NCBI GenBank assembly: GCA_964639785.1
Contig: CAZXEE010000001.1
Location: forward strand, 314,556 to 378,555
DNA length: 64,000 nucleotides
DNA from: an uncultured Gammaproteobacteria bacterium
Lineage (GTDB): Bacteria > Patescibacteriota > Patescibacteriia > Patescibacteriales > UBA12465
Reading direction: 5' to 3'
The stretch's first letter is position 1, and every line of letters starts with the position of its first letter. The translations under genes were made by a program, and so were the position numbers. This document shows positions 11,684 to 56,012 of the stretch, in pieces. The notes below the pieces were generated by a model. It ran no database searches, was not told where the DNA came from, and saw only the letters and a program-made list of their open reading frames with translations.

Positions 11684-11698
11684 TCAATGGTCAATTGA

Positions 11699-11727: not shown

Positions 11728-11840
11728 TTTTTGGCGCTCTAAAAAATTTAGTTTCAGTTTAGGCTCCCTTTAGGCGTCTTCTGCTATGATAGGATCACTC
11801 TCAGATTTCGCGCGGATTTGAGAGTATAATTAATATTCTT

Positions 11841-12791: not shown

Positions 12792-12849
12792 TAGGGCGTT
12801 GGGATTGGCTTGAAGGCCATGATTGATTATAGAAAATAAGCCGTTATTT

Positions 12850-16671: not shown

Positions 16672-16692
16672 TTTTCCGTTTGCTAGATAATA

Positions 16693-16724
16693 AAATAACA
16701 GGCTTTTAAAGGCCTGTTATTTTA
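16693..16724. terminator. Bidirectional terminator between convergent genes
   Basis: aataacaggcttttaaaggcctgttatttt. Confidence 0.8.
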
Positions 16725-16746
16725 TTATTTGATATCTATTCTTATT

Positions 16747-17652: not shown

Positions 17653-17715
17653 ATGGTTATTTTATAATTTATATTTATTATGCTATAATTATACCATAAT
17701 TCGTTAAATAACCAT

Positions 17716-18624: not shown

Positions 18625-18644
18625 TTTGTTTAGTTGATAATCAT

Positions 18645-18675
18645 GGCCCATTATCAGTTGATGGGCTTTTATTTA
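18645..18675 (+). terminator. Rho-independent terminator
   Basis: ggcccat tatcagttg atgggc followed by ttttattt. Confidence 0.55.
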
Positions 18676-18682
18676 TAATGAC

Positions 18683-19783: not shown

Positions 19784-19789
19784 AATCGT

Positions 19790-20410
19790 ATGGAAATCAA
19801 ATTATTAGCGCAAGCTAGAGAATTAAAAGAGAAATTAGCTAAAGACTTCGTCCCGGCAGTATTGTACGGTCCAGGCTTGGCTAACCAGAACCTAAAGGTC
19901 AGACGGATCGAATTAGAGAAGGCTGTAAATGCCGGTGGTGAATCTACTTTAGTAGATTTGGAGATTGATGGTGGAAAATCAGTCAAGGTTTTGCTGAAAG
20001 ATTTGCAATACCATCCTTTGAAAGATACCATTCGTCACGTTGACCTATATCAGGTTGATATGAAGAAGAAGATCACTACCGAAATCCCATTGCACTTTAC
20101 CGGAGAATCAAAAGCGGTTAAGGAGTTGGGCGGCATGTTAGTCAAGAATATGGATGCTATCGAAGTGGAATGTTTACCTACCGACTTAGTTAACCATTTC
20201 GATATCGATTTGACTGTCTTGAAGGAAATCCATGACTCCATCAAAGTTGGCGATTTGAAATTGCCGGCTGGTATGCACACCTTGCAGGATCTTGATACCG
20301 ATATCGCTACCGTTGTTGAACAGGAAGTGGAAGAGGTAGCCGCTCCAGTGGCTGCTCCGGCTGCTACTCCAGCAGCAGCTCCAGCTAAAGGCAAGGAAGA
20401 GAAGAAATAA
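19790..20410 (+). CDS. rplY: 50S ribosomal protein L25 (general stress protein Ctc form) with an Ala/Pro/Lys-rich C-terminal tail
   Basis: N-terminal L25 fold (LKAQARELKEKLAKDFVPAVLYGPG...) plus the Ctc C-domain. The tail is AAPVAAPAATPAAAPAKGKEEKK. Confidence 0.8.
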   Translation: MEIKLLAQARELKEKLAKDFVPAVLYGPGLANQNLKVRRIELEKAVNAGGESTLVDLEIDGGKSVKVLLKDLQYHPLKDTIRHVDLYQVDMKKKITTEIPLHFTGESKAVKELGGMLVKNMDAIEVECLPTDLVNHFDIDLTVLKEIHDSIKVGDLKLPAGMHTLQDLDTDIATVVEQEVEEVAAPVAAPAATPAAAPAKGKEEKK

Positions 20411-30357: not shown

Positions 30358-30564
30358 ATGGTTTTGTCTGCCAAAAAAGCATTGATCAGGGAGGAGTTCG
30401 GCTTCTTGTGCCAGGATTTCGAACCGGTGAAGACCACTTTTTTGTGGACTTTCACCAAGACTCCTTTGTCAATCATCGGAACGATTTTTATCTTCTTGCC
30501 CTGCTTCTTGGTTGCCGCCTTATTCCTGTTGGCCAAGACGATCGGGGTCATGTTGTTCTGCTAA
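30358..30564 (+). CDS. Small membrane protein (68 aa) co-transcribed with the NDK-like gene
   Basis: Strong SD gaaaggaggg 6 nt upstream. C-terminal TM SIIGTIFIFLPCFLVAALFLLAKTIGVMLF. Confidence 0.5.
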   Translation: MVLSAKKALIREEFGFLCQDFEPVKTTFLWTFTKTPLSIIGTIFIFLPCFLVAALFLLAKTIGVMLFC

Positions 30565-30577
30565 GATTAAAAAATCA

Positions 30578-30610
30578 AAAGGCGCTGTACTAAACGGCGC
30601 CTTTTATCTT
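30578..30610 (+). terminator. Rho-independent terminator
   Basis: ggcgctgtactaaacggcgcc followed by ttttatctt. Confidence 0.75.
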
Positions 30611-30637
30611 GACTTATTTTTCAGTTTTTGCTATGAT
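30609..30637 (+). promoter_or_regulatory. Promoter TTGACT-17-TGcTATGAT (extended -10) with no ORF downstream
   Basis: Near-consensus hexamers with a 17-nt spacer. Confidence 0.5.
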
Positions 30638-30644
30638 TTAATTA

Positions 30645-30908
30645 CAGTTTAGTTACAATTTAATATCGTTCTTTGTTTATTTAATGCATTAAAATTTCAA
30701 CTTTATTTGTCGTTCTTTCAAATGAGGACTTCGGAAGCTTCATTAGCAGCGTTATTAGTCGATTGAGCTTAGACTCCTACATGGATAGCTCTAATATCGA
30801 ATTTAAAAAAATTCTAACCTCGCCGATCAAGCCTTCTTAAATCCTGCTCGCTCCTTGCAAAAATTTTCAAACAATCCCTAGTAGCTCATGCTAGGGATTT
30901 TTTATTTT
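30645..30908 (+). ncRNA. Candidate small non-coding RNA of about 260 nt, running from promoter to terminator; function unknown
   Basis: Bounded by the promoter at 30609-30637 and the terminator hairpin aatccctagtagctcatgctagggatttttt (30873-30908). Only 14- and 19-codon ORFs inside. Confidence 0.35.
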
Positions 30909-39435: not shown

Positions 39436-40908
39436 ATGAAAAAATTTCTCATTTCCATCTTGATAGCTTGCAATCTCTGGGTCTGGTTCCCGGTGGCTTC
39501 GGCTGATGCTGCCGGTTTATCCGGAAGGATCTTCCTCCAGGTCCAAGACAAGGGCCAGGCTTGGTATATCTATCCGGTCGATTCCAAGAGATATTATCTG
39601 GGCCGTCCTAATGACGCTTTCAATGTCATGCGGAAATTGGGCTTGGGAGTTTCAGAAAAAGATTTCTATTCCTTTGCTATCAAGCCGCCAAAGAATATCT
39701 TGGGCCGCATCATCTTGCGGGTCCAGAGCAGCGGCCAAGCCTATTATGTCGATCCGGTGAGCGGACACTTGAATTATCTGGGCCGTCCCGATGACGCTTT
39801 CCGGGTGATGCGGAATTTGGGAGAGGGAATCACTAATGCTGATTTGAATAAGATCGTTTTGGGATATCTGGGAGTCATTTCTGATACTCCGGTGCCGAGC
39901 ACGATCACTTTGACAGCGGATCAGCGCTTGGTCAAATTCGTGTGGAAATATGACGGCCGCAGCTATTATCTCAACGAGATTTTCAGCAAGAGCCTTTACA
40001 ATCAATATAGCTCTATGCCCCGGGTCCTGACTTATCCGGAAGGCCAAGCCCCGGCTAACCTGCGCGACAGTTTCTACGCTTTGTTCCTGGCTCCGAGAAG
40101 CGGGGATAATATGCTGGATAAGGTGGTAGCTGACTTGAACAAGATCGCCCAGATTGACGGGATTACCGGTGACAAGCTGATTGAGTTCATGATGGCTTTT
40201 GTCCAATATATCCCATATGATACCAGCAAGGTTAATAATACTAATGTCCCTAACTATATCTATGAAACTTTATACCGCAATTCTGGCGTCTGCTCTGATA
40301 AGAGTTTCTTGGCGGTAGCTATGTTGCGTAAACTGGGTTATGGAGCGGCCATCTTGGATTTCCCGGAAAACAAGCACTCGGCAGCTGGAGTTTCTTGTTC
40401 AGCGGCTGATGCTACCGGAAATTCCGGCTATTGTTTCATTGAAACGACCAATTTTTTCCCGATCGGTGTTATCCCTAACGCTCTGAAGTCGGGTCAAGCG
40501 GAAAATTCCAGCCAATTTGATGGCATTTTTGATGCCGGCCATTTAGGCAGCATGGAGGTTTATCAAAGGACTTCGGCTAAATCCTATGCCGGCTTAGCCC
40601 AGACCAAGGCCAAGGCAGACCTGATCAAAAAATTAGCACAGACTATAGATGGTGAAAAAACTGAGCTGAATACTATCACTTTAGAACTATCTAACGATCG
40701 GGCGGCTTTGGATTCTTTGCAGGTTCAGATGAATAATTACAAGAATAGCGGCGATTGGGATAATTATAATCGGTTGATTCCGCAGTATAATGAGGCGGTT
40801 AGTAATTATAACGACAAATTGGCTAATTATCAGTTGAAAATCGATATCTATAATGCCAATATCAAGGAATATAATAGTTTGAGCAAGGCCTTCTACCAAC
40901 AGAATTAG
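39436..40908 (+). CDS. Secreted transglutaminase-like cysteine-protease-fold protein with two N-terminal tandem repeats and an Asn/Tyr-rich C-terminal coiled coil
   Basis: Signal peptide. Two repeats of about 45 aa (YYLGRPNDAFNVMRKLGLG / NYLGRPDDAFRVMRNLGEG). Transglutaminase core (NSGVCSDKSFLAVAMLRKLGY...H). C-terminus ...YNDKLANYQLKIDIYNANIKEYN. Confidence 0.6.
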   Translation: MKKFLISILIACNLWVWFPVASADAAGLSGRIFLQVQDKGQAWYIYPVDSKRYYLGRPNDAFNVMRKLGLGVSEKDFYSFAIKPPKNILGRIILRVQSSGQAYYVDPVSGHLNYLGRPDDAFRVMRNLGEGITNADLNKIVLGYLGVISDTPVPSTITLTADQRLVKFVWKYDGRSYYLNEIFSKSLYNQYSSMPRVLTYPEGQAPANLRDSFYALFLAPRSGDNMLDKVVADLNKIAQIDGITGDKLIEFMMAFVQYIPYDTSKVNNTNVPNYIYETLYRNSGVCSDKSFLAVAMLRKLGYGAAILDFPENKHSAAGVSCSAADATGNSGYCFIETTNFFPIGVIPNALKSGQAENSSQFDGIFDAGHLGSMEVYQRTSAKSYAGLAQTKAKADLIKKLAQTIDGEKTELNTITLELSNDRAALDSLQVQMNNYKNSGDWDNYNRLIPQYNEAVSNYNDKLANYQLKIDIYNANIKEYNSLSKAFYQQN

Positions 40909-41670: not shown

Positions 41671-42363
41671 ATGAACATCCCTAAAATTGAGGAATTGTTT
41701 AAAGCTGGTGCCCATTTCGGTCATCGTACCAATCGTTGGCATCCAAAGATGAAGCCTTACATCTTCTGTTCTAAGAAAGGCGTTTATGTTATCGACTTGA
41801 ACAAGACCCAGGAGTGCTTGGAGAGCGCTTTGGGTTATATCCAGAAATTAGTCCAAGAAGAGAAGTCAATCTTGTTCGTCGGTACCAAGAATCAGGTCAA
41901 GAAACCGATGCAGGAAGCGGCTATCGCTGCCGGCATGCCATATATCGTCGGTAAATGGTCCGGCGGTTATCTGACCAATTTCCCAGTTATCAAGAAATCT
42001 ATCAAGAAATATCAGGATCTCTTGTCTCAGAAAGAGACCGGCAGATTGGATAAATATAATAAGAAGGAACGTTTGAATATCGACCGTGAATTGAAGAAGA
42101 TGGAAGTCAAATTAGGCGGCTTGGTCAGCTTGAACAAGTTGCCTGACGTTTTATTCGTCTGGGATATCAAGGAAGAAGCTACCGCTATTGAAGAAGCTTT
42201 GAGCATGAAGGTCCCGGTTATCGCTGTTGTCGATACTAACGTCAATCCGGAATTGGTAAAATTCCCGATCCCAGCCAATGATGATTCCACTAAGACCGTA
42301 AAGGTTATTTTGGCATCAGTTGTTGACGCTGTAGCTGAAGCCCGCAAAGGCAAGAAGGCTTAA
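41671..42363 (+). CDS. rpsB: 30S ribosomal protein S2
   Basis: MNIPKIEELFKAGAHFGHRTNRWHPKM... is the canonical S2 sequence. Confidence 0.9.
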   Translation: MNIPKIEELFKAGAHFGHRTNRWHPKMKPYIFCSKKGVYVIDLNKTQECLESALGYIQKLVQEEKSILFVGTKNQVKKPMQEAAIAAGMPYIVGKWSGGYLTNFPVIKKSIKKYQDLLSQKETGRLDKYNKKERLNIDRELKKMEVKLGGLVSLNKLPDVLFVWDIKEEATAIEEALSMKVPVIAVVDTNVNPELVKFPIPANDDSTKTVKVILASVVDAVAEARKGKKA

Positions 42364-42395
42364 GAAAAAATAAATCATTTAATCTCATAAATAAT

Positions 42396-43190
42396 ATGGA
42401 ACAGATCAAAGCTTTACGTGAAAAAACCGGCGCTGGCATGGTTGATTGTAAGAAGGCTCTAGAAGAAGCCGGCGGCGATTTAGATAAAGCGGTAGAAATC
42501 TTACGTAAGAAAGGTATCGCTAAGGCAGCTAAGAGAACCGATCGGGAAACCAGCGAAGGTTTGGTTTTGGTGGGCGTCAATGACGACCACACCGAAGGTT
42601 ATATCTTGGAAGTCGATTCTGAAACTGATTTCGTATCTCGCAATGAAAAATTCCAGGACTTTGCCAAGGCTACCTTGGAATTGGTTAAGACTCAGAAACC
42701 GGCTGATTTAGAAGCTTTATTCGCTTTATCAATCGATGGCTTGTCAGTCAAGGATACTTTGGATAATTTAAGCGGTACTATCGGTGAAAAATTGGGTATC
42801 AAGGGTTTTGCTATCTTAAATGGCGCTACCGTTTCCAGCTATTCTCATTTAGGTGGCAAGATCGGAGTCTTGGTAGCTTTGTCTGAAGCTGGCAAGAGCG
42901 AATTAGCTACCGATATCGCTATGCAGGTAGCTGCTTCCAATCCTAAATATTTGTCTCCGGAAGAAGTACCGGCTGAAGAAATCAATAAGGAAAAGGAAAT
43001 CTATCGCGAACAGTTGGTCAAAGAGGGCAAGCCGGAACAGATGATCGAAAAGATTTCTGAAGGCAAGGTTAACAAGTATTATTCCGAAGTCTGCCTCTTG
43101 AAGCAAGAATTCATCAAGGATGACAAACAGACCGTCGAAGGTATCCTGAAGGGGACCAAGATCGAAAAGTTCATCCGTTTCAGCCTATAA
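42396..43190 (+). CDS. tsf: Elongation factor Ts (short form)
   Basis: IKALREKTGAGMVDCKKALEEAGGDLDKAVEIL is the UBA-like N-terminus of EF-Ts. Confidence 0.9.
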   Translation: MEQIKALREKTGAGMVDCKKALEEAGGDLDKAVEILRKKGIAKAAKRTDRETSEGLVLVGVNDDHTEGYILEVDSETDFVSRNEKFQDFAKATLELVKTQKPADLEALFALSIDGLSVKDTLDNLSGTIGEKLGIKGFAILNGATVSSYSHLGGKIGVLVALSEAGKSELATDIAMQVAASNPKYLSPEEVPAEEINKEKEIYREQLVKEGKPEQMIEKISEGKVNKYYSEVCLLKQEFIKDDKQTVEGILKGTKIEKFIRFSL

Positions 43191-43203
43191 TATTATTTCT
43201 TTA

Positions 43204-43232
43204 CAATTCCGCCTTCTAGGCGGAATTGTCTT
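43204..43232 (+). terminator. Weak terminator-like hairpin
   Basis: caattccgccttctaggcggaattg followed by tcttatt (short U-tract). Confidence 0.4.
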
Positions 43233-43241
43233 ATTACGCTT

Positions 43242-44051
43242 ATGAAAATAGTCCAAGTCCAGTTTTCTCCCTGGGACAAAAAATATAGCTTTATCAATAG
43301 TGATAATCTCGCTCTTAATATCGGCGACCAGGTTATCGTCGACACTGATTTAGGTTTGGAGATCGGAGAAGTGGCCGGCTTCCTGAAAGAAGCAGAAGAC
43401 CAGACAGCCGAAATCAAACCGGTTGTCCGTTTGGCCAATGAGGATGATTTGGCTCGGGTAGTGTCTGAAGACAAGAAGAAGGAATCTTTGGTATATTGCC
43501 AGGAATTGGTAGAGAAATATAATCTGCCGATGAAATTGGTCGATATCCATTTCGCTTTGGGCGGCTCCCGCATGAACTTCGCTTTTGCCGCTGAAGGCCG
43601 GGTCGATTTTCGCCAATTAGTGAAGGATTTGACCGCTCACTTCAATACCAGTATCCGTCTGACTCAGATCGGAGCTCGTGATGAAGCTCGGGTCAATGGT
43701 GATTGCGGTCATTGCGGCCGGAATCTGTGTTGCCAGAAATTCATCAAGGATTTTTCTTCCATCACTTCTGAGATGGCTGAAGTCCAGCAGGTAGTCCATC
43801 GAGGTAGTGATCGTATCTCTGGCATGTGCGGCCGTTTGATGTGCTGCTTGTCATATGAATATGACGGTTACCAGGAATTGGCTAAAAAATTGCCACCGAT
43901 CGGAGCTAAAGTCAATGTTGATGGCCAGAGAGGTGAAGTCTTGGGACATCATGTCTTGAAGCAATCGGTCGATGTCAAGTTTCCGGGAGAAAAAGGAGAG
44001 GGATATGTCGTAGTCGAGGTTGACCTCAATCGGCATAACAAGAAGAAATAG
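43242..44051 (+). CDS. PSP1 C-terminal domain protein (YaaT/RicT-like)
   Basis: The PSP1 family pattern and a Cys-rich segment CGHCGRNLCCQKF...CGRLMCC. Confidence 0.65.
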   Translation: MKIVQVQFSPWDKKYSFINSDNLALNIGDQVIVDTDLGLEIGEVAGFLKEAEDQTAEIKPVVRLANEDDLARVVSEDKKKESLVYCQELVEKYNLPMKLVDIHFALGGSRMNFAFAAEGRVDFRQLVKDLTAHFNTSIRLTQIGARDEARVNGDCGHCGRNLCCQKFIKDFSSITSEMAEVQQVVHRGSDRISGMCGRLMCCLSYEYDGYQELAKKLPPIGAKVNVDGQRGEVLGHHVLKQSVDVKFPGEKGEGYVVVEVDLNRHNKKK

Positions 44052-44075
44052 TAATTAGATATTTTTTAGATATAG

Positions 44076-44109
44076 AAAAGCGTTCTCGCAGGAGAGCGCT
44101 TTTTGTTTT
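44076..44109 (+). terminator. Rho-independent terminator
   Basis: aaaagcgttctcgcaggagagcgctttttgtttt. Confidence 0.8.
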
Positions 44110-44172
44110 GCCCTTTTTGCCGTTTTTGTGCTATAATTGAAAGGTAAATTATTAATACTTAGAATTAAAATT

Positions 44173-45183
44173 ATGACCAAATTAGCGATTAACGGTTTCG
44201 GCCGCATTGGCCGGGCCGTCTTGAAGATTCTCTTGGAGCGTTATCCGGAGGTTAAGATAGTGGCTATCAATGACTTGACTGATACCAAGACCTTAGCTCA
44301 TCTGCTTAAGTATGATTCTTGCTATGGAATCTATGGGGAAAATGTTTCATCCGATGCCAAGCACATAATCGTCAAAGGCCAAAAGATACCGGTTCTAGCT
44401 GAAAAGGATCCGACTTTGTTGCCTTGGAAGAAATTGGATGTCGATGTTGTGTTGGAATGCACCGGCCGCTTCACCAACAAGGAGGGTTTGTCTTTCCATC
44501 TGCAAGCTGGCGCCAAGAAGGTTCTTCTGTCCGCTCCGGCCAAGGGCAAGGAAGATAAAGTGAAGACTGTGGTGATCGGTGTCAATGAAGACAAGATGAC
44601 TAAGGCTGACAAGATGCTGTCTTGCGCTTCTTGCACGACTAATTGCTTGGCTCCGGTTTCAGATATCATCCGCCAATATTTCGGCATCAAGAAAGCTATC
44701 ATGACCACTATCCATTCTTATACCGCTGACCAGAACTTGGTTGACGGACCGCACAAGGATCTGCGCCGAGCTCGAGCTGCAGCATTGAATATGGTTCCGA
44801 CTACGACCGGTGCGGCGATTTCCGTTACCGAAACTATCCCTTCACTGAAGAACAAGTTCGATGGCTTGGCAGTCCGCGTTCCGACTCCAGTCGGTTCATT
44901 ATGCGATATCGTTTTCGTTACCAAGAAGAAAGTGACAGTGGAAAAGGTTAATGAAGCCTTCAAGAAAGTAGCCAAGATGAAGCGCTATCAGGGAATCATC
45001 CAAGCTAGCGAGGAACCGTTGGTATCCTCGGATATCGTCGGCAATGCTCATAGTGCTATTGTCGATCTGCCGATGACCAAGGTGGTTGATGGCGACTTGT
45101 TGAAGGTTACCGCTTGGTATGACAACGAGTGGGGTTATTCCAACCGCTTAGCTGACTTGGCTGTTTCTTTTGCCAAGAAATAA
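44173..45183 (+). CDS. gap: Glyceraldehyde-3-phosphate dehydrogenase
   Basis: MTKLAINGFGRIGR and the catalytic SCTTNCLAP. Start at the ATG at 44173. The track's TTG at 44137 lies inside the TGcTATAAT promoter at 44129-44137. Confidence 0.9.
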   Translation: MTKLAINGFGRIGRAVLKILLERYPEVKIVAINDLTDTKTLAHLLKYDSCYGIYGENVSSDAKHIIVKGQKIPVLAEKDPTLLPWKKLDVDVVLECTGRFTNKEGLSFHLQAGAKKVLLSAPAKGKEDKVKTVVIGVNEDKMTKADKMLSCASCTTNCLAPVSDIIRQYFGIKKAIMTTIHSYTADQNLVDGPHKDLRRARAAALNMVPTTTGAAISVTETIPSLKNKFDGLAVRVPTPVGSLCDIVFVTKKKVTVEKVNEAFKKVAKMKRYQGIIQASEEPLVSSDIVGNAHSAIVDLPMTKVVDGDLLKVTAWYDNEWGYSNRLADLAVSFAKK

Positions 45184-45195
45184 TATTTAAAGATT

Positions 45196-45594
45196 ATGGA
45201 TAAGGTTATTATCGCCTCCGGACCGGTGATTATCGAAGATGGCAAGGTCTTGTTGGCTCAGCATGGCACTGATGATTTCTGGAAGTTTTGCGGCGGACGA
45301 GTAGAAAGCAATGAGGTCAGCCTGATTGAAACTGCCAAGAGAGAAGTTCGAGAAGAGATGGGTGTGGAAATTGAGATCATTGAATCAGAACCGTTCCTGC
45401 TGCATACCGTCAAGGAAACTGGTGATGCCAGAATCGATGTTATCCTAGTCCATTATTTAGCCAAGAGGCTGGGTGATATCCGGCCGGGAAGCGATATTCG
45501 GAAATGGGATTGGATCAGCTTGGCTGATTTGCCGCAAGAACATCTAGCTCCGAATATCTTGCCAACTTTACGTCATTTCGGGTTTATTAAATAA
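45196..45594 (+). CDS. Nudix hydrolase (MutT-like)
   Basis: GGRVESNEVSLIETAKREVREEMGV Nudix box. Confidence 0.7.
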   Translation: MDKVIIASGPVIIEDGKVLLAQHGTDDFWKFCGGRVESNEVSLIETAKREVREEMGVEIEIIESEPFLLHTVKETGDARIDVILVHYLAKRLGDIRPGSDIRKWDWISLADLPQEHLAPNILPTLRHFGFIK

Positions 45595-45602
45595 ATTTTT
45601 TT

Positions 45603-46616
45603 ATGAGTATTATCGCTAAAATCAAAAAAGCTAATCTAGTCGGTCGCGGCGGCGCTTGTTTTCCGACGGCTGTCAAATGGGAATCGGTTCGCAAAGCTCC
45701 GGGAGCAGAGAAGTATGTAGTTATCAATGCCGCTGAAGGCGAACCGGGAGTCCAGAAAGACGGCTATATTTTAGAGAATCATCCGGATGAGATGTTCAAC
45801 GGCGTCCGTCTGGCCATGGAATATCTGGGCGCCAAAAAATGTTATCTGTATATCAATCCGGCTTATTATGAAAAGGACCGATTATTGATCATGAAAGCGG
45901 CTAAGTCCCAGGGATTGGCTAAGAGCTTAGAAGTTTTTGTTAAGCCGCACGATGCTGGTTATATCGGTGGAGAAGAGACTTCAGTCTTGAATGCTATTTC
46001 CGGTTTCAAGATAGAACCGCGCTTGAAACCGCCTTATCCGACGACTGCCGGATTGTGGGAGGCGCCGACATTGATTGATAATGTGGAAACTTTTTATAAC
46101 GTTTCCTTGGTTGATAAAGGACAGTATCTAAAAGAGCGATTTTACACCATCAATGGTCCGGTCAAGAATCCAGGAGTCTATTCTTTCCCGGAAGATTGGA
46201 CGATCGAGAAAGTTTTGTATGAGAGCGGTAATTATCCGAAGTTTGATTTCTTCGTCCAGGTCGGAGGCGATGCTTCCGGAGCGGTTTTCAATCAGGAGCA
46301 ATTGGGAGTGGCGGCTACTGGCGCAGCCTCAATCACTATTTATGACCTAAAGAAGCATAATCCGAAAAAGCTGTTGCAGTATTGGATTAATTTTTTCCAA
46401 GCTAATTCTTGCGGCCAATGTACGCCTTGCCGCGAAGGAACTTATCGCTTGGCTGAGATGTTGAAACAGAGACAAGTCGATTGGAATTCATTTGCTGAGT
46501 TGTTAGATGGTCTGTCAGAAACATCTTTCTGCGCTTTAGGGGGCAGCGTGCCGATTCCGGTTAGATCATATTTTAATAATGTTTTAAATAATAATTTAAA
46601 AAGAATCGTATCATAA
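45603..46616 (+). CDS. NuoF-like flavoprotein (NAD(P)H-binding FMN/4Fe-4S subunit, truncated; hydrogenase HydB/HoxF-type core)
   Basis: GRGGACFPTAVKW (FMN), VINAAEGEPGVQKDGY (NADH), and NSCGQCTPCREG (4Fe-4S). It lacks the N-terminal thioredoxin-like/2Fe-2S extension. Confidence 0.8.
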   Translation: MSIIAKIKKANLVGRGGACFPTAVKWESVRKAPGAEKYVVINAAEGEPGVQKDGYILENHPDEMFNGVRLAMEYLGAKKCYLYINPAYYEKDRLLIMKAAKSQGLAKSLEVFVKPHDAGYIGGEETSVLNAISGFKIEPRLKPPYPTTAGLWEAPTLIDNVETFYNVSLVDKGQYLKERFYTINGPVKNPGVYSFPEDWTIEKVLYESGNYPKFDFFVQVGGDASGAVFNQEQLGVAATGAASITIYDLKKHNPKKLLQYWINFFQANSCGQCTPCREGTYRLAEMLKQRQVDWNSFAELLDGLSETSFCALGGSVPIPVRSYFNNVLNNNLKRIVS

Positions 46617-46662
46617 TCTTGTTGGTCCAGGGATATCTCTCGGTTAATAAGATAAAAAAATT

Positions 46663-47412
46663 ATGGAAAAGACTAAAAAAACAGAGAAGCCGGTTATGGC
46701 CGCTGGGTCTCTGAAGAAAGCAATGATCGGAGTCGATGATTTGGCTTCCGGTTCAATCAAGTTTTATCAGCAGAATTTCAAAAAATTCGTGTTGATGTTA
46801 TTGGTCAGTTTGGGCGCTTATCTGCCTTTCTATCTGATTTCTGAATGGTTAAAGGTTAATACTAATGTAGTTTTGGGAGTGGTCTTGGTTATCTTGTTTA
46901 TCGCTTCAATGTTAGCCCTGATCTATTTCGGCGTTCGCGCCCAGATCGGCATGTATCTGATCTTGAAGAATCCAACCATGAAGTTCAAGGAATTATTCCA
47001 GGGTACCAGAGGACTCTTTTGGAAATTCTTCGGTTTGAGCATCTTGACTGGAATTCTAGTCTTGTTATGGACTTTGCTTTTGATAATTCCTGGTATCATC
47101 TTCGGAGTTTTCTATTCTTTCGCTTTGTACCTGTTAGTCTTTGAAGATGTCAGAGGCATGAATGCTATCAAGAGAAGCAAGGCTTTAGTGACCGGATATT
47201 GGTGGGCAGTCTTTGGCCGGACCATGTTCGTGATCTTGGTGGCTATGCTGATCTCTTTCGTCTTGAGCATTCCTTTCGTCTTTATGTCTCAGGGAACTAT
47301 CGTTTACTCTATCTATAATTCATTGCAGAATATAATCTGGGCTATAATTACTCCGGTCTTCATGATCTTCTCTTACTTGATGTACAAGGATCTGCGCCAT
47401 ATCAAAGGTTAA
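46663..47412 (+). CDS. Hypothetical polytopic membrane protein inside the hydrogenase locus
   Basis: About 5-6 TM helices. No motif. Confidence 0.4.
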   Translation: MEKTKKTEKPVMAAGSLKKAMIGVDDLASGSIKFYQQNFKKFVLMLLVSLGAYLPFYLISEWLKVNTNVVLGVVLVILFIASMLALIYFGVRAQIGMYLILKNPTMKFKELFQGTRGLFWKFFGLSILTGILVLLWTLLLIIPGIIFGVFYSFALYLLVFEDVRGMNAIKRSKALVTGYWWAVFGRTMFVILVAMLISFVLSIPFVFMSQGTIVYSIYNSLQNIIWAIITPVFMIFSYLMYKDLRHIKG

Positions 47413-47422
47413 TAGGATTATT

Positions 47423-49144
47423 ATGCCAAAAAAAGATGAGATAAAAATAAAGATAGACGGCAAGTCTGTCAAAGCTTTGAGCGGCCAGTCTATCATGGCG
47501 GCAGCGGCTGATAATGGAATCATGTTGCCGTCGCTCTGCCATCATCCGGACCTTTCCGTGAAGGCTAATTGCCGGGTTTGCGTGGTGGAAATCAAGGGGT
47601 CGCCTCGTTTGGCGACAGCTTGTTCGACGACCGTCAAGGAAGGGATGGAGATCTTTACCGATTCGCCTCGAGTGCAGAAATCCCGCAATATGAACCTAAA
47701 ATTATTGTTCGCTTCCCATGTAGAGAAGTGCGGCAATTGCACTTTGCGGTATAATTGCGCTCTATTGGATTTGGCTCGGAAATACAAGATTAAAATCACT
47801 AGTTTTCCGGACCGGAAAAGCCAGAGGAAGACTTGCAAGTTCGCTAATGCGGTAGAGATTGACGGTACCCAGTGTATCGATTGCCGCAATTGTATCGATG
47901 CTTGTTCCAATATCCAGAAGATCGATTACTTGGAGCTGAAAGGAAAGGGAATAAAGCAAGAGGTAGTGCCGACCGCTGATCCTGAGAGGGATTGCATCTA
48001 TTGCGGCCAATGTACTTTGCATTGTCCGGTAGCTGCGGCCCAGGAGCAGGATAGCTGGAAGGAAGTCGAAAAATTATTAGCTGACAAGAATAAGGTAGTG
48101 GTGGCTCAATTTGCTCCTTCAGTCCGAGTGACTATCGGAGAAGAATTTGGCTTGCCATATGGCGAGGAAACTACCGGCAAGACCGTGGCCGCTTTGAAGG
48201 CTTTGGGATTTAGTCATGTCTTTGATGTCAATTTCAGCGCTGATGTGACAACCATGGTGGAAGCGGGAGAATTGTTGGAGCGCTTGGGCAACAAGAAAGC
48301 CAAGATGCCGATGATTACCTCTTGCTGTCCGGCTTGGGTAAAATATGTCGAGTTCTATCATCCGGAATTGATCCCTAACCTGACCACTTCTCGTTCGCCT
48401 CAGATCCATTTAGGCGGAATCATCAAGACCTATTGGGCTGAGAAGTTGAAAGTTGATCCGAAGAAGATCGTCGTGGTTTCAGTGATGCCGTGTACGGCCA
48501 AGAAATTCGAATCACGGCGAGCGGAGATGAAGGTCAAAGGCCTTTATCCAGTCGATTATGTATTGACCACCAGGGAGTTCGGTTTCATGCTGAAGAAGAA
48601 CAATATTGATTTCAAGAAGTTAAAGCCGATGGATAGCGACAAGATCTTCAATGAAGGTAGCGGCGCAGCCGTTATCTATGGTTCTTCCGGCGGTGTGATG
48701 GAATCGGCTCTGAGAACGGCTTATGCCTTGGTTTGCAGTGATGATTCGGCCAAGTTCTGTAATTCTCGGATCGATTTCAAGGAAGTCCGCGGCTTGGAGG
48801 AAGTCAAAGAGGCGACTATCGATATCGCCGGCACTAAGTTACGCGTCGCCGTGGTTAACGGTATCGGATCAATCGATCGCATCCTGAGCCATTTATCGGA
48901 TTATGATTACATTGAAGTCATGGCTTGTCCGGGCGGCTGCATTGGCGGCGGCGGACAACCGATCCCGACTACTGACAAGATCCGCAAGGAAAGGGTAGCC
49001 GGACTTTATCGGATCGATAAGTTCAAGTCTATCAGGAAGGCCCATGAGAACCAGGAAGTGTTGGATGTGCTGGATTGGCTCAAGGCTAAGAAGATCGATC
49101 ATCAGGTATTGCATACCAAATATCAGAAACGAACTAAGAAATAA
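47423..49144 (+). CDS. hydA: [FeFe]-hydrogenase catalytic subunit (M3-type: 2Fe-2S, His-ligated 4Fe-4S, two 4Fe-4S, H-cluster domain)
   Basis: H-cluster motifs L1 TSCCPAWV, L2 MPCTAKKFE and L3 MACPGGCIGGGGQP. Ferredoxin motifs CIDCRNCIDAC and CIYCGQCTLHCP. N-terminal CHHPDLSVKANCRVC. Confidence 0.85.
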   Translation: MPKKDEIKIKIDGKSVKALSGQSIMAAAADNGIMLPSLCHHPDLSVKANCRVCVVEIKGSPRLATACSTTVKEGMEIFTDSPRVQKSRNMNLKLLFASHVEKCGNCTLRYNCALLDLARKYKIKITSFPDRKSQRKTCKFANAVEIDGTQCIDCRNCIDACSNIQKIDYLELKGKGIKQEVVPTADPERDCIYCGQCTLHCPVAAAQEQDSWKEVEKLLADKNKVVVAQFAPSVRVTIGEEFGLPYGEETTGKTVAALKALGFSHVFDVNFSADVTTMVEAGELLERLGNKKAKMPMITSCCPAWVKYVEFYHPELIPNLTTSRSPQIHLGGIIKTYWAEKLKVDPKKIVVVSVMPCTAKKFESRRAEMKVKGLYPVDYVLTTREFGFMLKKNNIDFKKLKPMDSDKIFNEGSGAAVIYGSSGGVMESALRTAYALVCSDDSAKFCNSRIDFKEVRGLEEVKEATIDIAGTKLRVAVVNGIGSIDRILSHLSDYDYIEVMACPGGCIGGGGQPIPTTDKIRKERVAGLYRIDKFKSIRKAHENQEVLDVLDWLKAKKIDHQVLHTKYQKRTKK

Positions 49145-49148
49145 TCAC

Positions 49149-49679
49149 ATGGACTATTTGAAGGAGGCAACTTTGGAAAGGGTTAATTCTCGGGAATTGG
49201 TGATAGCTATTATCCTGGGAGCTTTGGCTTCGTTCTTGCCTTTCTTTATCCATATCCAGTGGCTGGTCGGACCGATAGTCAATGCTATATTGATCATCGT
49301 CCTGTTCTTGAGCGGTCTGCGTTTGGCTATCGTCGTCTCGGCTGTTCCTAGCCTGATGGCTCTGGCTGGCGGATTATTGCCGATATTTTTGTCTCCGGCT
49401 GTTCCGTTCATTATCGTTTCCAATATTATTTTTGTTTCTATAGTCTATTATCAGTATTATAATTCCAACAAGCGGGATGCCTATTGGCGAGCTTCGTTTT
49501 TAGGAGCTTTTGCTAAATTCGTCCTCTTGTTCATAAGCGCCCGATTCTTGGCGGTCTTCATTTCTCATCCCCAAGCCGCAATCGTTTTGGGTACGATGTT
49601 CGGTTGGTCTCAATTGTTTTCTGCTTTAGCCGGCGCCATTATCGCTTTTGCGGTTTTGAAGTGGCTGAAGAGGATATAA
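49149..49679 (+). CDS. Hypothetical 5-6 TM membrane protein (ECF S-component-like)
   Basis: Start at the ATG at 49149, 5 nt after the hydA stop. Hydrophobic throughout. Confidence 0.4.
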   Translation: MDYLKEATLERVNSRELVIAIILGALASFLPFFIHIQWLVGPIVNAILIIVLFLSGLRLAIVVSAVPSLMALAGGLLPIFLSPAVPFIIVSNIIFVSIVYYQYYNSNKRDAYWRASFLGAFAKFVLLFISARFLAVFISHPQAAIVLGTMFGWSQLFSALAGAIIAFAVLKWLKRI

Positions 49680-49696
49680 TAAACTAAGAAAAATAT

Positions 49697-49963
49697 ATGG
49701 GAAAAAGAGTCTTGGGAACTATCAGCATCTTGACTAGCAATCGCCAGAAAAGCTCGGCTGAGATGAATCAGCTCCTGACCGCCTATGGCCATTACATCAT
49801 CGCTCGCTTGGGCGCTAATGTTAATCGCCAATGCTTTAATGCTTGTCCGGGCCTGATTGTCTTGGCAGTCGACGCTGATCGGGAAGTATTGGAAGAGCTG
49901 ACAGCCAAATTGAATGTCGTTTCAGAAATCAAGGCCGAACTCTGCGTTTTACAAGAAGAATAA
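49697..49963 (+). CDS. TM1266-like small protein (putative iron-only hydrogenase system regulator family)
   Basis: 88 aa. Pattern ...SAEMNQLLTAYGHYIIARLGANV...LIVLAVDADREVLEELTAKL resembles the TM1266/TIGR03959 family. Confidence 0.55.
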   Translation: MGKRVLGTISILTSNRQKSSAEMNQLLTAYGHYIIARLGANVNRQCFNACPGLIVLAVDADREVLEELTAKLNVVSEIKAELCVLQEE

Positions 49964-49983
49964 TCTGTTTGATTTCAAATATA

Positions 49984-50023
49984 AAGCCCCATGGGATATT
50001 TTAGTTTCATGGGGTTTTGATTT
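49984..50023 (+). terminator. Rho-independent terminator
   Basis: aaagccccatgggatattttagtttcatggggttttgattt. Confidence 0.75.
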
Positions 50024-50079
50024 GCCTGGGAGCTTTAAATATATTATACTGAAATCAGTTAAAAAATAAGGAAATATAA

Positions 50080-51564
50080 ATGAAAATACCGGAATTTGTC
50101 ATCGAAATCATAGAAAAATTACAAGCTGGCGGCAAGAGCGCTTATTTAGTAGGCGGTTCCGTCAGGGATTTGTTATTGGAAAAAGAACCGAAAGATTGGG
50201 ATATCACTACCGATGCCCGGCCGGAAGAAATGCTGCAGCTTTTGCCTGGATCTAAATATGAAAATACCTTCGGTACAGTTTTGGTACCGATCAGGAATGA
50301 GGCCAATGATGTGGTAGAAGTGACTACTTATCGCTCCGAACAGGGCTATTCCGACCGGCGGCATCCGGATCAGATATTGTTTGAGGACAAGCTGGACAAA
50401 GATTTAGAACGGCGCGACTTTACCGTCAATGCCATGGCTTTGACTGAGGTCGGCATGGCGACTGGGATCGATCAGAAATATATCATCCGGATCAATGTCG
50501 GCGGGAAGGAGTATGAAATCGTTGATTTGTTTGGCGGGATTTCCGATCTGAAGAAAAAGATTATCCGGGCGGTAGGGGAACCATCGGAAAGATTCAAGGA
50601 AGATGCTTTGAGGATGTTGCGGACTATCCGTTTCTCTTGTCAGTTAGGATTTGAGATCGAGCCTAAGACCGAACGGGCCATTGCCAAATTAGCCGGAAGC
50701 ATCAAATTCGTTTCTGGGGAGAGGATCAGGGATGAATTGGTTAAGATTTTGTCTTCCGATCTGCCGTCAGAGGGGATCAGGCGCTTGTATGAGAATAAGC
50801 TATTGCAATATATTTTGCCGGAATTGGAAGCCGGGGTCAATCTCAAACAGCATTATCATCATATCTACAATGTCTTCGAACATAATATCTTGTCTTTGAA
50901 ATATTGTCCGAATAAATCCTGGCAGGTCAGACTGGCCGCCCTATTACATGATGTCGGCAAGCCGAAATCAGCCCGGACAGTCGATGGCCATGTCGCTTTC
51001 TATAATCATGAATATATCGGTGCCAAGATGACTGAGAGGATATTGAAGCGCTTGAAGTTTTCTAATGAGGATTCTTTCCGGATAGTCAATCTGGTCCGTA
51101 ACCATATGTTCTATTACAACGTCGGGGAAGTTTCGGCCGCTTCAGTCCGGAGATTGATAGCCAAGACCGGCAAGGAGAACCTGAGCGATTTGATCGATCT
51201 GCGTATCGCCGATCGAATCGGATCCGGCCTCAAGAGCGAGATGCCATACAAGCTGCGCCATTTGCAGTATATGATGGAAAAAGTCCAGAATGATCCCTTG
51301 TCAGTCAAGATGTTGAAGATTAATGGCAGTGACCTGATGGGAATATTGAAAATAGCCCCCGGCCCCAAGATTGGAGCTATACTAGATGTCTTGTTGTCCG
51401 AGGTATTGGAAGATCCGACTTTGAATAATCAGGAGTATCTGAGCGACCGCAGTTTGGAATTAGACAAGCTTAACTTGGAAGAATTGCGCGCCAAAGCCAA
51501 GGAAGTGATAAATGAGAAGAGACGGGAAGAAGACTTGGAAATGAAACGTGATTTTAAGGTTTAA
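50080..51564 (+). CDS. cca: CCA-adding tRNA nucleotidyltransferase with a C-terminal HD domain
   Basis: LVGGSVRDLLLEKEPKDWDITTDARPEEM (polymerase-beta NTase head) and the HD motif LLHDVGK. Confidence 0.85.
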   Translation: MKIPEFVIEIIEKLQAGGKSAYLVGGSVRDLLLEKEPKDWDITTDARPEEMLQLLPGSKYENTFGTVLVPIRNEANDVVEVTTYRSEQGYSDRRHPDQILFEDKLDKDLERRDFTVNAMALTEVGMATGIDQKYIIRINVGGKEYEIVDLFGGISDLKKKIIRAVGEPSERFKEDALRMLRTIRFSCQLGFEIEPKTERAIAKLAGSIKFVSGERIRDELVKILSSDLPSEGIRRLYENKLLQYILPELEAGVNLKQHYHHIYNVFEHNILSLKYCPNKSWQVRLAALLHDVGKPKSARTVDGHVAFYNHEYIGAKMTERILKRLKFSNEDSFRIVNLVRNHMFYYNVGEVSAASVRRLIAKTGKENLSDLIDLRIADRIGSGLKSEMPYKLRHLQYMMEKVQNDPLSVKMLKINGSDLMGILKIAPGPKIGAILDVLLSEVLEDPTLNNQEYLSDRSLELDKLNLEELRAKAKEVINEKRREEDLEMKRDFKV

Positions 51565-53768: not shown

Positions 53769-54920
53769 ATGAAGGTCTATTTGGATAATGCCGCTACCAC
53801 CAAGATCGATCCGCGCGTCCTTGCTAAGATGAAGCCGTATTATGCCAAGCACTATGGCAATGCTTCATCGATCCATGCCCTGGGGCAGGAGAATGATCTC
53901 TTGATCAAATCATGCAAGGAAAAGATTGCCAAAGTCTTCCATGGTGCAGCTGACAATATTATCTTTACTTCTTCAGCTACCGAGGCCAACAACTTTATCA
54001 TCAAAGGAGTGATGCGGGCTAACAATGCCAAGGGCAAGCACTTGATCGTTTCAGCTATAGAGCATCCTTGCGTCTTGAATTCAGCTCGGGAGTTGGCTGA
54101 AGAAGGCTATTCAGTCGATTACCTGCCAGTAGATTCTGATGGCTTGGTTAAGATGGATGAGCTGGAGAAAATGATCAGGCCGGAAACTGTCTTGGTGTCA
54201 GTCATGGCGGTCAACAATGAAATCGGAGTCATCCAGGATCTGGCTAAGATCTCTGAGCTGGTCCACCTTAAGGGGGCCCGTCTCCATGTCGATGCTGTCC
54301 AATCAGTGCCATACCTCAACCTAGATATCAAGAAATTGAAAATAGATTTCATGAGCCTGTCAGCCCATAAGTTCTATGGACCATTGGGAGTCGGTTTGGC
54401 TTTTATTAATCCGGAAGTGAAGATCAATCCTCTGATTGTCGGCGGCGGACAGGAAAACGGCTTGAGAGCTGGAACCTACAATGTGCCGGGAATTGTCGGC
54501 ATGACTGAGGCTTTACTGCTGAGTTATAAAGAGCGAACGGCTTATATCAAGAGAGTCAAAGCTTTGCGGGATTATTTCTGGAATCGGATCAAGAAGGAAA
54601 TTCCAGACGCCTATATCAACGGTTCGATCAAGCACCGAACTCCTAATAACCTGAATGTCCGTTTTCGGCGGATCGAGGGAGAGGCTATCCTGATGGATCT
54701 GTCCTTCAAGGGAATTTATGTCTCGACCGGTTCAGCTTGTTCGGCTCAGAATCTGAAAGTTTCTTCCACCCTGAAAGCTATCGGCTTGGATCCGAATGAT
54801 ATGAATAGCAATATCCGTTTTTCTCTGGGACGCTATAATGCCAAGCCGGAGATCGATTATACTATGAAGTGCTTGAAGGAAACGGTAAAACGTCTCCGGA
54901 TGTTTACCCCTATCGTTTAA
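53769..54920 (+). CDS. iscS: Cysteine desulfurase (NifS/IscS family)
   Basis: MKVYLDNAATTKIDPRV and the PLP-lysine region SLSAHKFYGP. Confidence 0.85.
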   Translation: MKVYLDNAATTKIDPRVLAKMKPYYAKHYGNASSIHALGQENDLLIKSCKEKIAKVFHGAADNIIFTSSATEANNFIIKGVMRANNAKGKHLIVSAIEHPCVLNSARELAEEGYSVDYLPVDSDGLVKMDELEKMIRPETVLVSVMAVNNEIGVIQDLAKISELVHLKGARLHVDAVQSVPYLNLDIKKLKIDFMSLSAHKFYGPLGVGLAFINPEVKINPLIVGGGQENGLRAGTYNVPGIVGMTEALLLSYKERTAYIKRVKALRDYFWNRIKKEIPDAYINGSIKHRTPNNLNVRFRRIEGEAILMDLSFKGIYVSTGSACSAQNLKVSSTLKAIGLDPNDMNSNIRFSLGRYNAKPEIDYTMKCLKETVKRLRMFTPIV

Positions 54921-54938
54921 TAAATTAATCAATAATAT

Positions 54939-55418
54939 ATGTCATTGAATTATACTAAGAAAACTATCAGCCATTTTTTGCATCCGCAGAATCTTGGAGA
55001 TATCAAGGATGCTGATGCTCGGGCTAGCGTCGGTAATATGGTTTGCGGCGACCAGTTAGCTTTTTCCATCAAGGTTAAGGATGGGATCATCAAGGATATC
55101 AAATTCTTATCTTTCGGTTGCGCTTCCAATATCGCCACCGCTTCAGTTTTGACCGAGAAGGTCAAAGGAACTCCGATTGCCAAGGCGAAGAGTTTGGATT
55201 GGGAGAAGATCGTCAAAGAGCTGGGCGGATTGCCTAATCAGAAGATCCATTGTTCTATCCTGGCGGTTGAAGGCTTAAGGAAGGTTATCGCTGAATATGA
55301 GTCAGCTCATCCTGAAACTTCGATCAAGGTCCGGAAAGTGGTTAAGAAAGCTGCTCCGAAGACAGTTAAGAAAGTTGCTACCAAGACAGTTAAGAAGATA
55401 GTTAAAAAAACTAAATAA
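54939..55418 (+). CDS. iscU: Fe-S cluster assembly scaffold (NifU/IscU N-domain) with a Lys-rich C-terminal tail
   Basis: Cys motifs VGNMVCGD, FLSFGCASNIA and IHCS. The tail is KVRKVVKKAAPKTVKKVATKTVKKIVKKTK. Confidence 0.8.
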   Translation: MSLNYTKKTISHFLHPQNLGDIKDADARASVGNMVCGDQLAFSIKVKDGIIKDIKFLSFGCASNIATASVLTEKVKGTPIAKAKSLDWEKIVKELGGLPNQKIHCSILAVEGLRKVIAEYESAHPETSIKVRKVVKKAAPKTVKKVATKTVKKIVKKTK

Positions 55419-55424
55419 TCATTT

Positions 55425-56012
55425 ATGTTTAATTTACCATCTTTGCCTTTCGCTCCTAATGCTCTGGAGCCCCATATCTCGGCTCGGACTTTAGAGTTCC
55501 ATCATGGCAAGCATCACCAGGCTTATATCGATAACTTGAACAAGTTGATAGCTGGAACCGATCTGGAGGCTAAGAGTCTGGAGGAGATTATCGTTTTGAC
55601 TTCTGGTCAAGCGGAAAAAGCGGCTATTTTTAATAATGCGGCTCAGGCTTATAACCATGATTTCTATTGGCAGAGCCTTCATCCGGATAATGTTAAGCCA
55701 TCGGCTGAAATGAGCGATTTGCTCGTTTCTAGCTTCGGTAGTTTTGAGTCTTTTGCTGAACAATTCTTGGCGGCTGCCTTGGGACAATTCGGTAGCGGCT
55801 GGGCTTGGTTGGTTCTGGAAGAAGGGAAGCTGAAGATAGCCAAGACGGCTAATGCTGACACTCCAGTTGCTCATGGCCAGAAACCGCTATTAGTGATCGA
55901 TGTCTGGGAGCATGCTTATTATCTCGATTACCAGAATCGTCGCGGCGATTATGTCAAAGCTATCATCGATAATCTTTTGAACTGGAATTTCGCTGAAGCT
56001 AACCGGAAATAA
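55425..56012 (+). CDS. sodA: Superoxide dismutase (Fe/Mn)
   Basis: LPFAPNALEPHISARTLEFHHGKHHQAY and the C-terminal DVWEHAYY. Confidence 0.9.
   Translation: MFNLPSLPFAPNALEPHISARTLEFHHGKHHQAYIDNLNKLIAGTDLEAKSLEEIIVLTSGQAEKAAIFNNAAQAYNHDFYWQSLHPDNVKPSAEMSDLLVSSFGSFESFAEQFLAAALGQFGSGWAWLVLEEGKLKIAKTANADTPVAHGQKPLLVIDVWEHAYYLDYQNRRGDYVKAIIDNLLNWNFAEANRK

Follow-up and report, generated by a model that had tools for sequence, protein, structure and literature searches.

The best-described relatives of the locus presented here are the bifurcating HydABC [FeFe]-hydrogenases of group A3 (Thermotoga maritima, Thermoanaerobacter kivui and Acetobacterium woodii), in which the catalytic subunit HydA is joined by a NuoF-like flavoprotein, HydB, and a NuoE-like subunit, HydC. 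In complex I, electrons run from flavin mononucleotide (FMN) through cluster N3 into the [2Fe-2S]/[4Fe-4S] chain of NuoG, the NuoE cluster lying off this path, and structures place the first ~50 residues of NuoF in contact with NuoE. Hyd1ABC of Syntrophomonas wolfei is reportedly non-bifurcating and NADH-dependent, and keeps a NuoE-like subunit. Hnd of Solidesulfovibrio is an NADP-reducing hydrogenase (PMC10084766), and NuoE- and NuoF-like modules are mentioned for the ciliate hydrogenosomal [FeFe]-hydrogenase (PMC13198582). Group A loci of DPANN archaea encode a small transmembrane protein, 'hyd6TM', and mostly lack HydEFG (Greening et al. 2024, PMC11216029). The subject of this report is an [FeFe]-hydrogenase locus in a 64,000-nucleotide stretch of DNA from an uncultured bacterium, referred to throughout as the window. 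It encodes HydA, a short NuoF-like flavoprotein, two membrane proteins (Mem1 and Mem2) and a small TM1266-like protein, and with moderate confidence is predicted to specify an NAD(P)H-dependent [FeFe]-hydrogenase of two subunits that has no NuoE, does not bifurcate electrons and is characteristic of Patescibacteria. The organism is a Falkowbacteria-like bacterium of the Patescibacteria, or candidate phyla radiation (CPR).

Catalytic Subunit and Flavoprotein

Judged by its domains, HydA is an M3-type catalytic subunit of a group A [FeFe]-hydrogenase. Pfam matches run from Fer2_4 (residues 5-81) and NADH-G_4Fe-4S_3 (88-124) through a Fer4 dicluster (144-205) to Fe_hyd_lg_C (PF02906; 8.4e-90, 301 bits) and Fe_hyd_SSU (PF02256; 42.7 bits), giving the full M3 series of a [2Fe-2S] cluster, a His-ligated [4Fe-4S] cluster, a 2x[4Fe-4S] unit, the H-domain and a small-subunit-like tail. 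The N-terminus is NuoG-like, and NCBIfam matches include NuoG and HoxU. HydA passes the TIGR02512 'group A' model (465.6 bits, cutoff 405.95), and its best NCBIfam model is NF040763, 'group A6 NADH-dependent', at 663.6, under the cutoff of 765. The closest solved relative is HydA1 of T. kivui HydABC (8a6t_A, 3.8e-143, full length), which ranks ahead of A. woodii HydA1, CpI and T. maritima HydA; the closest named relatives belong to metagenome-assembled genomes (MAGs) of Candidatus Falkowbacteria and the 'Patescibacteria group'. An identical HydA is encoded on a 546,729-bp NCBI contig, and the sequence has also been assembled from SRR8925725. The H-cluster motifs TSCCPAW, MPCTAKK and MACPGGCIGGGGQP are present and are kept across 35 aligned homologues, as are all Cys and His ligands of the F-clusters. 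With the motifs defined as TSCCPxW (L1), MPCxxKxxE (L2) and ExMACxxGCxxGGGQP (L3), and all ligand cysteines required, this alignment bears out an earlier, sequence-only reading of the same DNA, which had described a complete H-cluster set.

The flavoprotein is most similar to NuoF/Nqo1 among structures in the PDB. It aligns to residues 54-398 of Aquifex NuoF, to Thermus thermophilus Nqo1 from residue 53, and to residues 188-548 of the 630 in T. kivui HydB. Since its first residue corresponds to residue ~54 of Aquifex NuoF, the N-terminal extension is genuinely absent. The FMN and NADH loops (GRGG, EGEPG, GGEE, NVET) and the CxxCxxC...C motif of an N3-type [4Fe-4S] cluster are conserved in 32 homologues, while no Fer4 or 2Fe-2S_thioredx Pfam match, as would mark the extra Fe-S domains of bifurcating HydB, is found in the protein. 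All 32 full-length homologues are 314-377 residues long, and an exhaustive search yielded ~25 representative clusters of 320-365 residues beginning at residue ~1-10, a coherent short-NuoF family; given this uniformity, the short form is not an assembly artefact. The earlier description of a flavoprotein with FMN, NADH and 4Fe-4S motifs but without the usual N-terminal extension thus agrees with the alignments and the homologues.

Neither the window nor 126 loci examined with it yielded a NuoE/HydC-like gene, whether as open reading frames (ORFs) with a Cx4Cx25-45Cx3C motif or by tblastn with 2Fe-2S_thioredx domains, as the sequence-only reading had stated for the region it saw. One or two natural fusions also join the flavoprotein to the hydrogenase. 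P0386 (918 aa) is an in-frame fusion of a short NuoF-like protein to an M3 HydA, with motifs intact and no sign of read-through, and P0385 (885 aa) is a probable in-frame fusion of the same kind, also with intact motifs. These fusions are strong indirect evidence that the short flavoprotein feeds the hydrogenase directly, with no NuoE. A NuoF-like gene upstream of HydA wherever a locus has room for it, the missing NuoE-like gene and the natural fusions together support the minimal NAD(P)H-linked hydrogenase suggested earlier. A third protein, P0391 (702 aa), carries a short NuoF-like module, a long Pro/Thr-rich linker and a [NiFe]-hydrogenase small-subunit (Oxidored_q6) domain; partners of the NuoE-less flavoprotein module thus include [NiFe] enzymes.

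Conservation in Patescibacteria

The arrangement was compared in 116 related loci, comprising 36 genome loci fetched via HydA and 80 metagenome loci fetched via alignment of Mem2. The recurrent order is PSP1 - GAPDH - NuoF-like - [Mem1] - HydA - [TM1266] - [ferredoxin] - [Mem2] - CCA, where brackets mark genes present in some loci. HydA is preceded by a short NuoF-like gene in every one of the 33 genome loci where upstream sequence exists, and in all 35 metagenome loci that extend at least 1.3 kb upstream. In most related loci the NuoF-like gene directly follows that for glyceraldehyde-3-phosphate dehydrogenase (GAPDH), a linkage that the first reading overlooked. The locus is also carried by two near-complete contigs, ERZ25039495 contig_61671 (1,274,625 bp) and JBAXJX010000001.1 of GCA_037137655.1. 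In the most distant loci the NuoF-like and HydA genes overlap (L030, L031) or nearly abut (L032), with no GAPDH nearby; since the pair holds even there, it is taken as the core of the locus.

Other members of the neighborhood vary. A NUDIX gene stands before the NuoF-like gene only in the window's own clade (L045, L047-L049), and relatives with ~35% identity follow Mem2 in 11 loci (L065, L071, L073, L075, L079, L086, L088, L089, L100, L104 and L111). The protein is generic and MutT-like, and its position and presence vary, so a role as functional partner was rejected as unproven. A gene for a 70-77-residue 2x[4Fe-4S] ferredoxin lies between TM1266 and Mem2 in L019 (12209-12421), L021 (12007-12234), L067, L080, L085, L087, L099, L102 and L121; the window has none. 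In several loci without Mem2, the stretch from HydA/TM1266 to the CCA gene encodes a conserved hypothetical protein (274-311 residues) with motifs such as 'ARASxYDDYENGVD' and 'NIPAFFLxISK' (L002 11964-12893; L005 12050-12874; L008 6172-7065; L012 11968-12846; L018 7293-8228; L030 11625-12461).

Several of the related MAGs (L002-L004, L009, L018, L019, L021, L023, L024, L026, L035 and L036) are labelled 'uncultured Gammaproteobacteria' or 'Woesearchaeota archaeon'. They show the Patescibacteria gene order, only in part for L024, L035 and L036, and 54-67% HydA identity, and the labels are probably placeholders or misclassifications. The genes themselves are already in public databases, where relatives are annotated '[FeFe] hydrogenase, group A'. 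The searchable literature gave no account of a two-subunit architecture without NuoE, nor of the short NuoF family, the fusions or the link between Mem2 and HydA.

Proposed Function

The short NuoF-like protein would bind NAD(P)H and FMN and carry a single N3-type [4Fe-4S] cluster, from which electrons would pass directly to the NuoG-like N-terminal [2Fe-2S]/[4Fe-4S] relay of HydA and on to the H-cluster, where H2 would be made (or consumed). Because the HydA N-terminus is NuoG-like and the NuoE cluster is off-path in complex I, a heterodimer of the two proteins would hold the full path from NAD(P)H to the H-cluster. Since nothing assigned to electron bifurcation is present, a simple NAD(P)H:H+ oxidoreductase is proposed. 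Given its apparent co-transcription with GAPDH, the enzyme would most likely re-oxidize glycolytic NADH to H2, a route that for a fermentative, partner-dependent cell would work only where neighbors hold H2 low. The TM1266-like protein and Mem2 would be conserved accessories, probably in regulation and in cofactor or precursor supply, and Mem1 and the NUDIX protein lineage-specific additions. Gene content, motifs, synteny, fusions and the lack of NuoE and HydEFG nearby are observed; direct transfer from flavoprotein to HydA, the direction of the reaction, the GAPDH link and the role of Mem2 are points that we infer.

The slot itself is occupied differently in a Falkowbacteria relative, L039. 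Its segment 2303-21374 shares rpsB-tsf-PSP1-GAPDH with the window (41671-51564), but GAPDH is followed by an NAD(P)H-linked [NiFe] group 3b hydrogenase and then PGK instead of the NuoF-like and HydA genes, so that the place beside glycolysis genes is filled interchangeably by two different hydrogenases. Together with the conserved place after GAPDH, this suggests that the module balances glycolytic NAD(P)H.

Several points weigh against this assignment. NADH-driven H2 evolution is endergonic under standard conditions and needs a low H2 pressure, although this requirement fits a partner-dependent lifestyle and the evolution direction is putative. The ferredoxin gene in some related loci means that ferredoxin may also take part. 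The position beside GAPDH may reflect inherited synteny and no functional tie, and the most distant loci (L030-L032) do not show it. The Gly-Met junction of P0385 could be a stop-codon read-through artefact. No maturases for HydA were located in the 64-kb window, nor HydF or HydG on its 546,729-bp contig among the matches listed, so that activity of the enzyme, like the function of the pair, is putative.

Membrane Proteins and the TM1266-like Protein

Mem1 is found in ~7 of the 36 genome loci and in 11 of 80 metagenome loci, flanked in every case by the two hydrogenase genes, and with so limited a distribution is regarded as a subclade-specific insert. Mem2, by contrast, is tightly linked to HydA. 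Its match to the S-component family PF12822 is marginal, and 15 of 17 Mem2 homologues match the same family (best E = 3.8e-10). Many polar and Pro/Gly positions are invariant; there is no conserved cysteine and there are no heme-type ligands. Of the 44 metagenome loci that reach at least 2.5 kb upstream of Mem2, 40 have HydA there. Mem2 occurs without HydA in four loci (L070, L072, L113 and L116), and it is missing from about half of the genome loci that carry the NuoF-like/HydA pair. Sequence searches of the PDB gave no meaningful match, a profile search of PDB sequences gave none at all at E <= 10, solved S components (RibU, FolT, PanT and others) included, and Foldseek against the PDB returned nothing for a single-sequence AlphaFold model of low confidence (pLDDT 64.7, pTM 0.32). 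No EcfA or EcfT gene turned up near the locus in the part of the window scanned with family libraries, a scan not aimed at these genes.

On the strength of the family match and the lack of conserved cysteines, Mem2 looks like a transporter-type accessory rather than an electron-transfer anchor. It may correspond to the 'hyd6TM' of DPANN hydrogenase loci, to which it is likened by description only (PMC11216029); that it imports riboflavin to supply FMN to the flavoprotein is speculation. The sequence-only reading had noted two interleaved polytopic membrane proteins, which are indeed present, and had raised the idea of a possibly membrane-associated hydrogenase. In such an enzyme Mem1, Mem2 or both would hold the NuoF-like/HydA pair at the membrane, perhaps in connection with some membrane process. 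The tight linkage of Mem2 with HydA and, in one subclade, the position of Mem1 between both subunit genes would suit this reading. We nevertheless consider it unlikely: most loci have no Mem1, the core pair often occurs without Mem2 and Mem2 in a few loci without HydA, Mem2 has no conserved Cys or heme-type ligands and resembles a transporter component, and HydA has neither signal peptide nor membrane segment.

The TM1266-like protein at the end of the unit has the 88 residues described earlier; it passes PF21699 (Table 1) but falls below the NCBIfam cutoffs (TIGR03959, 42.8 against 60.8; NF052672, 44.9 against 85). Similarity to the TM1266 structure (PDB entry 2nzc) is distant (E = 0.007). 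By annotation the protein is a putative regulator of the iron-only hydrogenase system. Its homologue follows HydF in L014 and L016; in the window there is no maturase gene.

A Trimeric Alternative

The locus might instead belong to an ordinary trimeric bifurcating HydABC of group A3 whose NuoE-like HydC gene lies in another part of the genome. HydA resembles most closely the HydA1 subunits of the bifurcating enzymes from T. kivui and A. woodii, and classification by neighboring genes would give A3; its best NCBIfam model, that of group A6 NADH-dependent hydrogenases, is counted on the same side. However, the flavoprotein does without both the ~50 NuoF residues that contact NuoE and the extra [2Fe-2S] and 2x[4Fe-4S] domains of HydB, the search of the window and 126 loci gave no NuoE-like gene, and direct fusions of the flavoprotein to HydA occur. 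A hidden HydC is therefore very unlikely, and the two-subunit NAD(P)H-linked enzyme remains the preferred assignment.

Maturases

No ORF with a radical-SAM CxxxCxxC motif occurs in the window, and tblastn with HydG, HydE and HydF across it gave no real similarity (best E = 0.013). Database-wide searches with HydG and HydF of L014 found neither on the 546,729-bp contig of the locus, nor on ~16 HydA-bearing contigs of at least 300 kb, including a 1,274,625-bp contig with the same locus, among the matches listed; HydF matches listed reach down to 44% identity and into other phyla. Absence at the contig level was deduced by indirect matching of contigs across search outputs and covers these contigs. 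The proxy works, since five contigs known or expected to carry both maturases (36455, 46210, 58922, 41901 and 32258) recur in both lists. These results suggest that the 546,729-bp contig and many relatives have no recognizable HydF and HydG.

Some relatives do retain maturases. In L014 and L016, hydG-hydE-hydF stands between HydA and TM1266; the L014 HydG and HydE pass their NCBIfam cutoffs, and HydF scores 311.2 bits, just under 325.55. Stand-alone hydGEF clusters lie away from any HydA in L042, L043, L125 and L126, and hydGEF occurs in none of the 80 metagenome loci. Of the earlier suggestion that the maturases are elsewhere or absent, absence holds for the window and apparently for the 546,729-bp contig; other Patescibacteria keep hydGEF in or outside the cluster.

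HydG matches with ~65% identity were considered as Falkowbacteria [FeFe] maturases and rejected, because they are located in [NiFe] hydrogenase clusters and so are uninformative on the maturation of HydA. In several Patescibacteria, HydG (TIGR03955, 599.8 bits) and a HypC::HydE fusion (HypC residues 1-67; HydE TIGR03956, 281 bits, above cutoff) lie inside a [NiFe] group 3b (sulfhydrogenase-like) cluster with HypA (L037 6865-14430; L039, a Falkowbacteria MAG, 6398-20098; L040 6605-15402). Such clusters suggest that the CO/CN ligands of a [NiFe] site may be produced by radical-SAM maturases of the [FeFe] type; a limited literature search found no description of HydG and HypC::HydE in a [NiFe] cluster.

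Among archaea, 122 of 130 HydA-bearing genomes are without recognized maturases, and an alternative maturation route has been proposed (Greening et al. 2024, PMC11216029). It is conceivable, if doubtful, that most Patescibacteria with the NuoF-like/HydA pair, this genome included, truly lack HydEFG, yet with the H-cluster pocket fully conserved obtain or build the [2Fe] subcluster by an undescribed route. Mem2, together with the TM1266-like protein, could have a part in it, for instance in the uptake of a precursor or a finished cofactor supplied by the host. If so, the puzzle of maturase-less [FeFe]-hydrogenases, so far one of archaea and some protists, would come to include a large bacterial radiation, with a candidate gene. 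That a maturase-free genome instead leaves HydA without its [2Fe] subcluster, as an Fe-S NAD(P)H:acceptor oxidoreductase and no hydrogenase, would accord with the missing hydE, hydF and hydG in the window and, among the matches listed, the missing HydF and HydG on the large HydA-bearing contigs, but is highly improbable, because TSCCPxW, MPCxxK and CPGGCxxGGGQP residues all conserved in 35 homologues and the fusions are hard to explain without that subcluster, and archaeal HydA from maturase-less genomes is active when made heterologously (PMC11216029).

Organization of the Locus

The hydrogenase region sits in a forward-strand gene block, preceded there by rpsB, tsf, a PSP1-domain protein and GAPDH (Table 1). 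All genes named in the sequence-only reading exist on this strand by Pfam and NCBIfam checks. Its starting point, 45196, taken there as part of the hydrogenase locus, proved to open a separate and undescribed NUDIX gene. The GAPDH ORF opens at a TTG at 44137, and the likely true start is the ATG given in Table 1. From GAPDH to the TM1266-like gene, intergenic gaps are just 4-46 bp; the PSP1 and GAPDH genes are 121 bp apart, and a 116-bp gap containing a hairpin separates the TM1266-like gene from that of the CCA-adding enzyme. The hairpin was missed by a simple terminator scan and revealed by folding, in agreement with the terminator noted earlier at the end of the unit. The tight spacing, the promoter-like site and the hairpin with its U-rich tail make a transcription unit from GAPDH through the TM1266-like gene probable. 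Base composition of the region is that of neighboring DNA, and tRNA and Rfam scans of the window gave no match.

Table 1. Features of the hydrogenase locus, in window coordinates
Feature	Position	Strand	Basis
Promoter-like site, TTGCCC-18-TATAAT with TG	44108..44137	+	Consensus match only, 10/12; upstream of GAPDH
Type I GAPDH	44173..45183	+	Pfam Gp_dh_N, Gp_dh_C; TIGR01534 414.7 bits, above cutoff 367.2
NUDIX hydrolase, MutT-like, 132 aa	45196..45594	+	Pfam NUDIX 1.3e-17; no specific NCBIfam assignment
Short NuoF-like (HydB-core) flavoprotein, 337 aa	45603..46616	+	Complex1_51K 1.7e-34, SLBB, NADH_4Fe-4S 5.9e-17
Mem1, polytopic membrane protein, 249 aa	46663..47412	+	Weak UPF0259/YciC match, 27.5 bits, below cutoff 31.4
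HydA, predicted M3-type group A [FeFe]-hydrogenase catalytic subunit, 573 aa	47423..49144	+	Pfam/NCBIfam domains
Mem2, 176 aa, ~6 helices, ECF S-component-like	49149..49679	+	PF12822 (ECF_trnsprt) 32.8 bits, cutoff 30.7
TM1266-like small protein, 88 aa, ACT-like	49697..49963	+	PF21699 39.7 bits, cutoff 27
Terminator-like hairpin, U-rich tail	~49982..50019	+	-26.8 kcal/mol, z = -3.64; 0/200 shuffles fold as well

Elsewhere in the window, 4-6 kb downstream of the hydrogenase (53769-56012), are genes for a NifS-type cysteine desulfurase, a NifU/IscU scaffold and an Fe-superoxide dismutase, which place Fe-S assembly and oxygen defence near an oxygen-sensitive enzyme; the same block is downstream of the locus in L128. 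Positions 1-4000 have a G+C content of 0.31-0.34, against ~0.43-0.47 elsewhere, and encode two group-1 glycosyltransferases (456-2646); this stretch may be an acquired surface-glycan island. A secreted-looking protein of 490 residues (39436-40908) has an internal repeat, QAWYIxPxxxxRYYLGRPxDAFxVMRxLGLG, present twice, and no NCBIfam match. There is also a 1282-residue ORF at 12823-16671. An ORF with seven Cys (30431-30649) was considered as a ferredoxin candidate and rejected as not a plausible protein.

Implications

Much of bacterial diversity belongs to the CPR, yet how these cells balance their redox state is poorly understood. A conserved pair of genes for NAD(P)H:H2 conversion beside GAPDH would be a very cheap means of NAD+ regeneration, and would tie CPR growth to H2-consuming neighbors or hosts. 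It would also be the smallest natural pairing of a NuoF-type diaphorase with a hydrogenase, and a compact NADH-linked H2 catalyst. Having neither NuoE nor any of the clusters implicated in bifurcation, the pair would serve as a natural minimal control for studies of the HydABC mechanism. Should the lack of HydEFG be real, it would provide many bacterial test cases, along with a linked membrane protein, for studying how H-clusters might otherwise be matured.

Comparison with Known Systems

Like the HydABC enzymes, the locus encodes an M3 HydA of the same length and domain order, next to a flavoprotein homologous to the HydB core with its FMN, NADH and N3-cluster motifs. In contrast to them, it has no HydC, and the flavoprotein is 337 residues long rather than the ~600-630 of HydB, without the N-terminal [2Fe-2S] domain or the C-terminal 2x[4Fe-4S] domain; these being parts implicated in bifurcation, that apparatus is missing here. 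With S. wolfei Hyd1ABC and Hnd, the locus shares a proposed pyridine-nucleotide-linked H2 chemistry through a NuoF-like flavoprotein and an M3 HydA, but those enzymes have a NuoE-like subunit and three or four subunits in all, whereas only two subunit genes are present here.

In P0386 and P0385 the NuoF-like module is covalently joined to HydA, as in the ciliate hydrogenosomal enzyme. The NuoE- and NuoF-like modules of the latter are C-terminal, while the CPR fusions have an N-terminal short NuoF-like part and no NuoE part. The DPANN loci resemble the present one in coming from an ultra-small symbiotic lineage, in combining a group A HydA with a diaphorase partner and a small membrane protein, and in that maturases are usually not found; their A3 enzymes are given three subunits, HydB and HydC among them (PMC11216029), in contrast to the absence of HydC here. 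Unlike the NADH module of complex I (NuoE/NuoF/NuoG), the locus has no NuoE, no off-pathway N1a cluster and no membrane arm, and its NuoG-like module is fused to an H-cluster domain. The likeness lies in the predicted electron path, which would run from FMN through N3 to a NuoG-type [2Fe-2S]/[4Fe-4S] chain and so match the on-pathway route of complex I.

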